DNA of 64,000 nucleotides from an uncultured Rhodospirillaceae bacterium (lineage in GTDB: Bacteria > Pseudomonadota > Alphaproteobacteria > Rhodospirillales > UBA2165): positions 4,941-68,940 of the forward strand of contig CAZUGT010000204.1 of the NCBI GenBank assembly GCA_964620095.1, read 5' to 3'. The position numbers and the translations under genes were made by a program. This document shows, in pieces, positions 50,087 to 52,420 of the stretch (positions within the stretch are counted from its first letter, which is position 1; the number at the start of each line of letters is the position of its first letter). The notes under the pieces were generated by a model, which was not told the DNA's origin, ran no database searches, and was given only the letters and a program-made list of their open reading frames with translations.

Positions 50087-52420
50087 ATGAGTGAACAGCC
50101 CCTCGGCAGTCCGGACGATGCGTCCGCCGCGCCATCGGCAGGATTTGCGTCGACGGTCATCCGGAATCCCATCGATCCCGAGCACTTGGGTTCCGCCGCC
50201 CTGTCGCCGGGGGGCGAGTTTGCCGCCGGATCCTACCATAGCTTCACGCTGGTCTACACGGCGGGGAAATACGGCATCGACGACTCGGGCTCGCTCCGCA
50301 TCTGCTTTCGGTTTGCGTCGGATCAGACCCGGCCTCAGTTCGAAAACCCCGAAGGACCCAACTACACGGTCATCGAAGCATCGAACAACGCGGTGCTGGA
50401 GTATCGCTACGACCCCAAGGGCAATGTCCGGCCGTGGGACCGGACGCTGTACATCAAGGTCGTGCATGGGTTCCTGAAGGAAGGGGACACGATTTCCGTG
50501 CGGTTCGGGGTGACCGATCACGGCTCTCCCGGCATGCGTCTTCAGACGTTCTGCGAGGACTCGTTCGAGTTCCACGTTCTCGTCGATCCCATTGCCACGT
50601 TCACCTATCAGCCGCTCGTCGAGCAGCCGAAGATCAAGATCGTTCCCGGTGAACGGGAGCGGTTCCTGGCCGTGATCCCGACGCTCCGGAGGGTTGGGGA
50701 AACATTCGCGCTGAAGTTCAAGGGCGAGGACCGGTGGGGTAATCCGTCGGACAAGGGCGGCGGCGAGTTCACCCTGCGCGCCAATATTCCCGTTTCGGGG
50801 TTGCCGGGAACGGCCAGCCTTCCCGACGGCTCGTTCAGCGCCGAAATCCCGGGCCTGTCTGTGACGGAAGCCGGAGATCTCGTGATCGAACTGCTGGACG
50901 AGGCCGGAAACCCGGTCACCGAGACCAACCCCCTTCGGATCGTCGAAGACGCCGACAAGATCCACTACTGGGCCGACCTTCACGGCCAGTCGGAAGAGAC
51001 GATCGGCACTGGCGATGCTGGCGACTATTTCGCCTTCGCCCGGGACCGGGCCTTTGTCGACGCGACGGGGCACCAGGGCAACGATTTCCAGATCACCAAC
51101 CGGTTTTGGCAACGCTTGGACAAGCTCTCGGCCCGGTTCGAGGAAGACGGAAAGTTCGTCGTCCTTCCGGGCTACGAGTGGTCGGGCAACACCGGTCTCG
51201 GCGGGGACCGCAACGTCTACTTCTCCGAAGAGGGACGCCAGATCAGGCGGTCGTCCCATGCGCTGGTCGAGGACCGGTCCGACATCGCCACGGACTGCAC
51301 CACCGCCGCGGAGTTGTTCGAGACCCTGGCTGCCAACCGGGAATGGGACGTGGTGGTCTTCGCCCATTGCGGCGGCCGCTACGCCGATGTGAAGATGGCC
51401 CATGACGGCCGCTTCGAAAAATCCATGGAGATCCACTCCTCGTGGGGCACGTTCGAGTGGCTTCTCCATGACGCGCTGGAGATGGGCTACCGGACCGGGA
51501 TCGTCGCCAACTCGGACGGCCACAAGGGCCGCCCCGGGGCCAGTTACCCGGGCGCCTCGCTCTTCGGCGCCGTCGGCGGACTCACGTGCCTCATCACCGG
51601 CGAACTGACCCGGTCGTCGGTTCTCGATTGCCTGCGCAAACGTCACCACTACGCAACGACCGGCGGGCCCAACGGGCGGATGTATATAGGCGTCGCGGCG
51701 GCGTTCAGCCGAGACGCGACGATCTATCACGACGATCCGGCGATCGGCCCCGCCGAGGGCCAGCCGGGACGATCCGCGATCATGGGCGACATCGTACATT
51801 TGCCGGACGGCAGCGCCGAGATCAGCGTCGATATTCACGTCGCCTGCCCCATCGAACGGGTCGACATCTTCAACGGGCTGGACCATGTGGAGACCGTCCG
51901 GCCCTATGGTCCGGACGAGCTCGGCAATCGCATACGCGTTCTATGGGAGGGCGCGGAATATCGCGGCCGGTTCCGTCAGGTGATCTGGGACGGCAGCGCC
52001 TTGCTCTCGGACAATCGCATCGAAGACGCCGCTCCCATCAATTTCTTCAATCCGGACAAGTCCCTGAATCGTCTCGGCGACAACGGCCTCGAATGGAGGG
52101 CCCTGACCACCGGGAACATCGGCGGATTCGACGTCTGGCTGGCCGATCCCTACGGCGGCACCCTCAAACTGGAAACACCGCTCGTACAGTGCGGCATTCC
52201 CGTCGAGGAAATCGGATACGAGGACGAGATATTCGACCGGAGTGGTGTGCTGCCCCGCTATTTGAAGGTATACCGCCTGCCGGCCCGGAACCCGCACCGC
52301 CGGATGACCTTCAAACGGACCATCGGCCTCAAGGATGACGGGGACAATCCGGTCTACATCAGGCTGACCCAGGAAGACGGAACGCTGGCCTGGACGAGCC
52401 CGATTTATATCTATCGTTAG
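50087..52420 (+). CDS. 777-aa orphan protein; the central region has PHP/DUF3604-like metallohydrolase-type motifs (low confidence on function)
   Basis: GGGAGA RBS, coherent codon usage and no signal peptide. The N-terminal ~290 aa are beta-rich. The central part carries YWADLHGQSEE (from 50975), LPGYEWSGN, VVFAHCGGRYAD, MEIHSSWG and VANSDGHKGRPG, a His/Asp/Glu ladder resembling a metal site. The C-terminal ~220 aa are again beta-rich. Confidence 0.7.
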   Translation: MSEQPLGSPDDASAAPSAGFASTVIRNPIDPEHLGSAALSPGGEFAAGSYHSFTLVYTAGKYGIDDSGSLRICFRFASDQTRPQFENPEGPNYTVIEASNNAVLEYRYDPKGNVRPWDRTLYIKVVHGFLKEGDTISVRFGVTDHGSPGMRLQTFCEDSFEFHVLVDPIATFTYQPLVEQPKIKIVPGERERFLAVIPTLRRVGETFALKFKGEDRWGNPSDKGGGEFTLRANIPVSGLPGTASLPDGSFSAEIPGLSVTEAGDLVIELLDEAGNPVTETNPLRIVEDADKIHYWADLHGQSEETIGTGDAGDYFAFARDRAFVDATGHQGNDFQITNRFWQRLDKLSARFEEDGKFVVLPGYEWSGNTGLGGDRNVYFSEEGRQIRRSSHALVEDRSDIATDCTTAAELFETLAANREWDVVVFAHCGGRYADVKMAHDGRFEKSMEIHSSWGTFEWLLHDALEMGYRTGIVANSDGHKGRPGASYPGASLFGAVGGLTCLITGELTRSSVLDCLRKRHHYATTGGPNGRMYIGVAAAFSRDATIYHDDPAIGPAEGQPGRSAIMGDIVHLPDGSAEISVDIHVACPIERVDIFNGLDHVETVRPYGPDELGNRIRVLWEGAEYRGRFRQVIWDGSALLSDNRIEDAAPINFFNPDKSLNRLGDNGLEWRALTTGNIGGFDVWLADPYGGTLKLETPLVQCGIPVEEIGYEDEIFDRSGVLPRYLKVYRLPARNPHRRMTFKRTIGLKDDGDNPVYIRLTQEDGTLAWTSPIYIYR

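Follow-up and report, generated by a model that had tools for sequence, protein, structure and literature searches.

A divergent DUF3604-type PHP-fold protein in an uncultured Rhodospirillaceae bacterium and its possible place in organosulfonate metabolism

A stretch of 64,000 nucleotides from an uncultured Rhodospirillaceae bacterium in a sponge metagenome (the window; contig CAZUGT010000204.1, positions 4,941 to 68,940) carries, directly upstream of two sulfotransferase genes, a gene for a 777-amino-acid (aa) protein, here called gene X and its product X. Among proteins of the PHP/DUF3604 type (DUF, domain of unknown function), X can best be classed as an uncharacterised variant with an altered set of metal ligands and a five-domain build, and it is very probably a PHP-fold, DUF3604-type enzyme. 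A role for X in organosulfonate or sulfite-related metabolism has, in our judgement, slightly less than an even chance of being correct; the more explicit reading favoured here, in which X works in the cytoplasm as a metal-dependent hydrolase and has an anionic ester of organosulfonate metabolism as its substrate, is advanced at the same tentative level. A preliminary description, made from the sequence alone, had presented X as an orphan and as the possible substrate-specific enzyme of a sulfotransferase pathway, and the results below bear on both proposals.

Fold, domain architecture and family

An AlphaFold2 model of X, built on a 131-sequence alignment, reached a predicted local distance difference test score (pLDDT) of 95.1 and a predicted template modelling score of 0.93. 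Its secondary structure, assigned with DSSP, consists of a disordered segment (aa 1–20), beta-sandwiches at about aa 35–167 and 182–286, a barrel at aa 292–524, and further beta-sandwiches at aa 533–776. The beta-rich regions that the preliminary description had proposed on both sides of the centre are thus confirmed, and the centre itself is alpha/beta; the earlier count of three domains holds roughly, as three blocks, within which the model shows five structural domains.

The central domain, modelled alone (pLDDT 93) and compared with the Protein Data Bank (PDB) by Foldseek, returned PHP-domain proteins as all of its top 23 matches (E 1e-8 to 8e-3; template modelling score, TM, up to 0.63). 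Solved PHP phosphoesterases were matched at a probability of 1.00, with E between 1e-8 and 1e-4 and TM 0.57–0.63; BVU_3505 (3e38) gave E 1e-8 and TM 0.61–0.63, and further matches were TM0559 (2anu), 7rty, PsfC, EndoQ, RNase AM, the PHP domain of Pol III alpha, and BAD_1165. In the domain model and in these comparisons the centre of X has the distorted (beta/alpha)7 barrel of the PHP superfamily, which it shares with 3e38, 2anu and YcdX (1m65), and in all of these acidic and histidine residues follow the barrel strands, although sequence identity to solved PHP phosphoesterases is only 12–17% and 3e38 and 2anu are themselves without known function. Profile and structure comparison, both recommended in the preliminary description, differed in their yield: sequence and profile searches of the PDB with the X protein, its full-length profile and its central-domain profile gave nothing meaningful, whereas Foldseek of the centre gave PHP proteins. 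Foldseek matches of the whole model (Ig-like, GH2 and macroglobulin structures; TM 0.1–0.2) were driven by the beta-sandwich domains and were set aside.

Pfam DUF3604 (PF12228) matches X at 31.1 bits over the full protein and at 34.2 bits over the central domain, against a gathering threshold of 20.4, and it matches the central domains of all 41 of 41 diverse relatives examined (best E 6.8e-19). The likeness to PHP/DUF3604-type metallohydrolases that had been noted loosely is therefore real, being borne out by the Pfam scores of X and of its relatives and by the Foldseek matches to PHP phosphoesterases. The DUF3604 match to X spans only profile positions 113–219 of 591: the N-terminal HxH region and the rest of the profile do not align, and X and its relatives, about 720–780 aa long, have a build of their own that includes four beta-sandwich domains. 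Judged from these alignments, X belongs to a divergent DUF3604 subfamily. A literature search on DUF3604, and on PHP together with sulfonate or sulfatase, found neither a DUF3604 member with a described function nor a paper on the X family.

The remaining profile comparisons concern the flanking domains and enzyme families proposed by reaction or context. A Pfam scan of the four beta-sandwich segments matched no family; the second N-terminal beta-sandwich carries an invariant EDRWGNP turn (D215, N219), and the Ig-like repeats of FUS1p give a weak profile match over this D-x-W-G-N-P turn. The Pfam scan of X gave DUF3604 only, with no match to the profiles of formylglycine sulfatase (PF00884) or ComB (PF04029). 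The CehA/McbA profile (NCBIfam NF038032) matches weakly over aa 338–588, which is part of the barrel and the first C-terminal beta-sandwich, and membership was rejected (24.3 bits against a cut-off of 80). CehA/McbA enzymes (carbaryl hydrolases) hydrolyse carbamate esters, and the gene contexts of X give no pointer to such substrates.

The family is large and widely distributed. At least 7,497 proteins match X at E ≤ 1e-3 in a word-indexed search; the 120 best matches are 67–94% identical to X, about 777 aa long and found mainly in Rhodospirillales and other Alphaproteobacteria, and several of these 120 carry the public label 'DUF3604 domain-containing protein'. An exhaustive search of representatives of clusters at 50% identity returned 3,879 clusters at E ≤ 1e-3, 664 of them below 1e-30, and the whole architecture is conserved, because most of these clusters are 710–780 aa long and align across aa 30–775 of X. 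A genome scan found 128 relatives in species-representative genomes, and hosts include Rhodospirillales, SAR116/Puniceispirillales, Hyphomicrobiales, Rhodobacterales, Arenicellales, other Gammaproteobacteria, Bryobacterales, Binatota and Desulfobacteraceae. With homologues and clusters in these numbers X is no orphan; the designation was an annotation error, corrected here, and databases already list the family as a 'domain of unknown function'.

X itself is predicted to be cytoplasmic. Its N-terminal 20 residues are acidic and disordered, and the highest Kyte-Doolittle mean over 19 residues is 1.32, which agrees with the earlier statement that the protein has neither a signal peptide nor a transmembrane segment. 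No informative domain fusions were found in the family, longer relatives having signal, twin-arginine translocation (TAT) or lipoprotein N-termini or being mis-called. In three distant relatives (P0174, P0189 and P0248; 30–35% identity) the N-terminus resembles that of a lipoprotein, a membrane anchor or a TAT substrate, so that the family has exported versions as well as the cytoplasmic one.

Candidate active site

Conservation was measured over 91 diverse relatives of X, down to about 30% identity. D297, E364, E448, S451 and D477 are each conserved in 99% of them, H427 in 97%, H299 in 95%, Q301 in 92% and Q330 in 87%; N332, D333, D374 and N376, together with R319, R388, R431, R482, R509, R519 and R531, reach about 89–99%, while H479 (79%) and H450 (58%) are less strictly kept. 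All five motifs that had been listed as potential metal ligands were located in the translation (ADLHGQS, aa 296–302; GYEWSG, aa 362–367; AHCGG, aa 426–430; EIHSSWG, aa 448–454; NSDGHKGRPG, aa 475–484), and conservation within the family is highest in these five. The conserved arginines number seven, and this arginine-rich flank suggests an anionic substrate.

The H-x-H of PHP motif I is altered in X, which has D297-L-H299-G-Q301, and the second histidine occurs in 2 of the 91 relatives; the replacement of HxH by H-G-Q, noted previously in the single sequence, is thus genuine and family-wide. Other PHP features are present. The bridging glutamate after strand 3 and the histidine after strand 4 of PHP proteins have counterparts in E364 (strand 362–366) and H427 (end of strand 423–427), which, judging by their position in the model, would be equivalent to PHP metal ligands, and the C-terminal D-x-H occurs as S476-D477-G-H479. 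In the models, D297, H299, Q301, E364, H427, E448 and D477-x-H479 lie at or just past the C-terminal ends of barrel strands. PHP and amidohydrolase active sites sit at these strand ends, so that the placement of the residues fits what the active site of a PHP fold requires.

YcdX, in a sequence verified to be identical to 1m65, was used as the characterised reference for the site. The D5-L-H7 of YcdX lines up with the D-L-H start of motif I in X, whereas the second histidine of HxH and the equivalent of H40 are both glutamine in X and E448 stands where a histidine is expected. The underlying hhalign comparison of the central-domain profile with YcdX has a probability of 0.6% and is a lead only; it pairs Q301 with the zinc ligand H9 and Q330 with H40. 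From these sequences the metal site of the family appears to be modified, with D-x-H-x-Q instead of D-x-H-x-H and with Glu, Asp, Asn and Gln in place of several canonical histidines, and the family would in that case extend PHP-fold chemistry to sites in which Gln, Glu and Asp replace canonical histidines.

The same substitutions could also be taken as signs that X is a catalytically inactive scaffold or binding protein, a pseudo-enzyme: two zinc-binding histidines of YcdX align with Q301 and Q330 (in a weak alignment), H450 and H479 are incompletely conserved, and four beta-sandwich domains could mediate interactions. We consider this extremely unlikely. The replacement residues are near-invariant, as are D297, H299, E364, H427, E448 and D477 (92–99%), which argues for selection on an active site rather than decay, and Gln, Asp and Glu can coordinate metals.

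Organosulfonate neighbours and the favoured reading

Eighty-four loci carrying X homologues were compared and dereplicated at 75% identity to 27 lineages, and co-occurrence of neighbouring genes was counted by tblastn within 10 kb of X. An organosulfur marker (HpsN, SuyAB-like, ComA, TauD or TauE) lies within this distance in 12 of the 27 lineages, a count for which there is no background model. The looser form of the original proposal, that the family is linked to sulfur metabolism, stands in so far as genes for sulfur-oxyanion and organosulfonate metabolism appear as its recurrent neighbours. Across bacteria, relatives of X adjoin genes of sulfonate breakdown more often than sulfotransferase genes.

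The fullest of these contexts resemble operons for the catabolism of 2,3-dihydroxypropane-1-sulfonate (DHPS). Downstream of X, L006 has a HisD-like gene, a short-chain dehydrogenase/reductase (SDR), a zinc-dependent alcohol dehydrogenase (Zn-ADH), a SAF protein of 96–110 aa and a UxaA-type large subunit of about 390–420 aa, and in L012 the same block stands after a LacI-like gene and DctPQM. In SAR116 loci, where X is 56–60% identical to the copy in the window, the order is DctP-DctQ-DctM-X-GMC oxidoreductase-SDR-YihU-like reductase-HisD-like-SDR-Zn-ADH-SAF-UxaA. The HisD-like neighbours have a GRY[A/S/R]H motif at about residue 123 in 13 of 13 cases; this motif is reported to separate the DHPS-3-dehydrogenase HpsN from HisD, which has G-S-A-P-L, and an hpsRNOUPsuyAB cluster has been described in the same paper (PMC11382572). 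By subunit layout the pair of small SAF and large UxaA proteins would be SuyAB-like (sulfolactate sulfo-lyase), with only weak galactarate-dehydratase matches in NCBIfam. In an Acidobacteriota locus, SuyAB-like genes lie directly 3' of X.

Other lineages place X beside different sulfur genes. In L018, X ends in an overlap with the start of a ComA gene, confirmed by Pfam, after which come a glutathione S-transferase gene and a NitT/TauT-like ATP-binding cassette (ABC) system, and ComA lies within 10 kb of X in 12 loci belonging to several lineages. The start of a TauD-family gene overlaps the X stop in L084, and such a gene lies 5' of X in L067. A TauE/SafE gene stands on the same strand directly upstream of X in six SAR116 loci (L030, L031, L034, L036, L037 and L039), in most of them with a gap of about 30–110 nucleotides (nt); this pairing is old, because the six TauE proteins are only 32–100% identical to one another. 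As a separate observation, genes for a class-I fumarase-like hydratase of two subunits and for a flavoprotein resembling fumarate reductase are found repeatedly near X in several lineages (positions 5669–9126 of L034, and L006, L014, L039, L048, L068 and L085).

In the favoured reading, the catalytic core would be the DUF3604-type PHP barrel held between the four beta-sandwich domains, where a water molecule, activated by metal at the C-terminal barrel face, would cleave an ester bond. The substrate would be a small, strongly anionic metabolite, and a phospho- or sulfo-ester would be the most likely chemistry because characterised PHP enzymes are phosphoesterases. At the level of the family, this metabolite would most likely be a C2/C3 organosulfonate of the DHPS, sulfolactate, isethionate or taurine routes, which release sulfite. 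(R)-sulfolactate is the one metabolite common to the ComA, HpsN and SuyAB contexts, and (2R)-phosphosulfolactate would therefore be the most concrete candidate substrate.

Several points weigh against a hydrolase of organosulfonate metabolism. Fifteen of the 27 lineages have no sulfur-related neighbour within 10 kb, and the contexts of lineages without a sulfur marker include histidine kinases. Other contexts there have the look of housekeeping: a prolyl-tRNA synthetase gene lies 3' of X in one clade, a 2-oxoacid dehydrogenase operon lies beside it in Pelagibius, a gene for a phosphatase resembling protein tyrosine phosphatases adjoins a 43%-identical relative, and an enolase-superfamily gene adjoins a 35%-identical one. 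The enrichment of sulfur neighbours, as seen in these gene contexts, is judged against a chance expectation that is a rough estimate and not a background model. The sulfur enzymes adjoining X seem to share no single obvious substrate, and (2R)-phosphosulfolactate leaves the place of X inside DHPS-catabolic operons unexplained. At the active site, two canonical metal-binding histidines appear to have become glutamine, and both metal content and catalytic competence are predictions. To our knowledge, no PHP-family enzyme is known in sulfonate metabolism.

Two alternatives draw on this evidence. X could be a general phosphoesterase or another hydrolase unrelated to sulfur, acting for example on a nucleotide or sugar phosphate, a carbamate or an ester, in which case the sulfur neighbours would reflect how densely marine and sponge-associated genomes are stocked with such genes. 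The lineages without a marker and the non-sulfur contexts are consistent with this, as are the upstream region of its own with which X moves between contexts and the many copies of sulfatase, tauD and tauE genes in sponge symbionts and SAR116. The genes adjoining X are, on the other side, also hpsN-type, suyAB-like and comA genes, which are usually low in copy number; they are often in overlapping or near-overlapping frames and are seen in Rhodospirillales, SAR116, Hyphomicrobiales, Gammaproteobacteria and Acidobacteriota, and the chance of one such gene lying within 10 kb is, by a rough estimate that was not computed, well under 5% of genomes. A sulfur-independent hydrolase is regarded as unlikely.

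The second alternative is a specific version of the favoured reading, in which X, as a non-orthologous replacement of ComB, is a 2-phosphosulfolactate phosphatase of PHP fold and converts the ComA product to (R)-sulfolactate. The ComA genes near X, above all the one overlapping its stop codon in L018, speak for it; so do the phosphoesterase activity of characterised PHP enzymes, the match between the phosphate, carboxylate and sulfonate of the substrate and the seven conserved arginines, and the fact that (R)-sulfolactate is common to the HpsN and SuyAB neighbours. The L018 operon showed no ComB (PF04029), an absence that covers this one operon and not whole genomes. ComB has no sequence or fold relationship to X, which would at most be a functional analogue with a reaction that could match. 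Most X loci have no ComA nearby, and a biosynthetic phosphatase has no obvious role in a DHPS-catabolic operon that already makes sulfolactate, so that we hold a ComB replacement to be quite unlikely.

It is doubtful, but of wider consequence, that the X family is a so far unrecognised marine organosulfur enzyme, a PHP-fold hydrolase whose altered metal site (His/Gln/Glu/Asp) would break a phospho- or sulfo-ester bond of a metabolite that bears a sulfonate; a ComB-independent phosphosulfolactate phosphatase and a first PHP-fold sulfo-ester hydrolase are the candidates here. Large fluxes of carbon and sulfur pass between phytoplankton, sponges and bacteria in the form of DHPS, sulfolactate, isethionate and taurine, and we know of no hydrolase of the X type in the known pathways for these compounds. 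If the proposal is true, SAR116, Rhodospirillales and sponge symbionts would depend on X to provide sulfolactate, DHPS or isethionate or to convert them further, and X is a concrete candidate for a step still missing from sulfonate pathways or for the entry of a new substrate into them. The remaining lead, of moderate interest, is a widespread, unstudied probable hydrolase encoded within operons of marine sulfonate catabolism.

The sulfotransferase junction and the surrounding island

Gene X is a real gene and not a chance open reading frame (ORF): the 777-aa ORF reported earlier was confirmed by ORF call and translation, begins with ATG, ends with a stop codon at 52418–52420 and is preceded by a GGGAGA ribosome-binding site at 50074–50079, 7 nt 5' of the start codon. 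A 607-aa antisense ORF that overlaps X (50063–51886, minus strand) is a high-GC shadow and not a gene. The coordinates of X, of its domains and of its neighbours are collected in Table 1.

Table 1. Features of gene X and of the adjoining part of the window.
Feature	Position	Strand	Basis
Gene X, 777-aa protein of the DUF3604-like PHP-fold family	50087–52420	+	ORF, translation, homologues, AlphaFold2 model
5' intergenic segment moving together with X, including the ribosome-binding site GGGAGA	49936–50086	+	Nucleotide identity to L006/L012; sequence
Two N-terminal beta-sandwich (Ig-like) domains, aa 35–286	50189–50944	+	DSSP of the model
Central PHP-fold barrel, aa 292–524	50960–51658	+	Domain model, Foldseek, Pfam DUF3604, conservation
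Candidate catalytic residues of the barrel: D297, H299, Q301, Q330, N332, D333, E364, D374, N376, H427, R431, E448, S451, D477, H479, R482			
Two C-terminal beta-sandwich domains, aa 533–776	51683–52414	+	DSSP of the model
10-nt junction of X and sulfotransferase 1, recurrent rearrangement point	52421–52430	+	Synteny breaks, insertions
Formylglycine-type sulfatase, divergent from X	48417–49925	−	Pfam Sulfatase, 179 bits
Sulfotransferase 1, Sulfotransfer_3	52431–53582	+	Pfam PF13469, 125 and 128 bits for the pair
Second Sulfotransfer_3 gene	53655–54782	+	Pfam PF13469, 125 and 128 bits for the pair
Fe-dependent alcohol dehydrogenase	54805–55992	+	Pfam/NCBIfam
Choline-sulfatase equivalog	56032–57609	+	TIGR03417, 586 bits against a cut-off of 433

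Sulfotransferase 1 begins with an ATG at 52431, 10 nt past the X stop, as had been described, and an AGGA sequence overlaps that stop. Scans for a sigma-70 consensus promoter on the plus strand and for a terminator between X and sulfotransferase 1 found none, and both scans are uninformative either way. Co-transcription of X with the sulfotransferases in the window is plausible from this arrangement.

Across the compared loci, sulfotransferases lie within 10 kb of X in 7 of 84, all of them at least 90% identical to the window, and hence in 1 of 27 lineages. Co-occurrence of the two, which the preliminary description had suggested checking, is thus present in a single lineage, and gene order is not kept in independent ones. 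Two loci (L006 and L012) hold copies of X with 94% DNA and 96% protein identity to the copy in the window; this identity is confined to 49936/49956–52425, with no synteny outside, and ends 5 nt past the X stop. Two further loci carry insertions exactly at 52419–52421, one of 2.0 kb (L009; 12336–14313, encoding an IS630-like transposase in ORF 12915–14087 on the minus strand) and one of 0.83 kb (L010; 12335–13166, without a convincing ORF).

Sequencing runs returned as 'rna' hold contigs of up to 164 kb that behave like DNA assemblies, and they were used for structural variation only. In three runs from another host (X21, X22 and X24), a contig joins 50030–50110 to 52459–55200 through 267 unrelated letters, with X absent, and in the same samples X lies on a second contig, with dissimilar DNA beyond it; the variant is a sulfatase/sulfotransferase locus without X from a sponge sample. 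X together with about 140 bp upstream behaves as an independent, self-contained unit, and the upstream segment probably holds a promoter of its own for X. No direct or inverted repeats were found flanking X, so there is no sign of X as a mobile element in its own right.

From these comparisons, the position of X at the head of the sulfotransferase block is a recent, lineage-specific juxtaposition and not a conserved pathway relationship. It is very unlikely, in our assessment, that X is dedicated to the local sulfotransferase/sulfatase pathway, whether as a PHP-type phosphatase for 3'-phosphoadenosine-5'-phosphate (pAp) or as a hydrolase that prepares the acceptor. The immediate context invites that view: two Sulfotransfer_3 genes begin 10 nt after X, with a ribosome-binding site that overlaps the X stop and no terminator between them, and the arrangement is conserved in seven close relatives. 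The role would also suit the chemistry, pAp being the inhibitory by-product of sulfotransferases that depend on 3'-phosphoadenosine-5'-phosphosulfate, and PHP-family pAp phosphatases exist (the COG0613 enzymes), of which the related entry 3e0f is among the Foldseek matches. The association is found in one lineage only, in which X is at least 90% identical, while copies 94–96% identical stand elsewhere with synteny broken 5 nt past the stop, an IS630-like element or a 0.83-kb insert separates X from the sulfotransferase in two loci, and a natural variant of the sulfotransferase locus lacks X altogether.

The structural comparison points the same way. The pAp phosphatases and RNase AM (COG0613; 3e0f, 7ug9) share the PHP fold with X, and removal of the by-product would fit the local context in the window; unlike X, they consist of one domain of about 280 aa and have all the histidines, their structural match is weaker (TM 0.45–0.47), and 3e0f, at TM 0.47, falls below uncharacterised PHP proteins. 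The comparative context also speaks against a tie between X and the sulfotransferases. The earlier proposal of a substrate-specific enzyme of the sulfotransferase pathway is thus not supported by comparative genomics, the two being close in 1 of 27 lineages and the junction between them rearranged; to infer the function of X from the adjacent sulfotransferases would be an annotation mistake, since the adjacency is a recent rearrangement.

An Opp-type ABC system is also among the genes downstream of X, and two more sulfatases lie farther upstream of X. Four formylglycine-type sulfatase genes thus stand within 17 kb (40588–42153, 43161–44672, 48417–49925 on the minus strand, and 56032–57609), and the same region (40588–57609) holds two ABC uptake systems and IclR- and Crp-type regulators; it is a sulfate-ester utilisation island, typical of a sponge symbiont. 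A third Sulfotransfer_3 paralogue, with about 75% DNA identity to sulfotransferase 1, lies at 63412–63998, past the ABC transporter genes and at the end of the window. A 1,025-aa antisense ORF (57678–60755, minus strand) overlaps real genes and is an artefact of high G+C content (about 60–64%). A 400-aa ORF at 47196–48398 on the plus strand has no Pfam match and stands beside a sulfatase both in the clade of the window and in an unrelated locus (L064).

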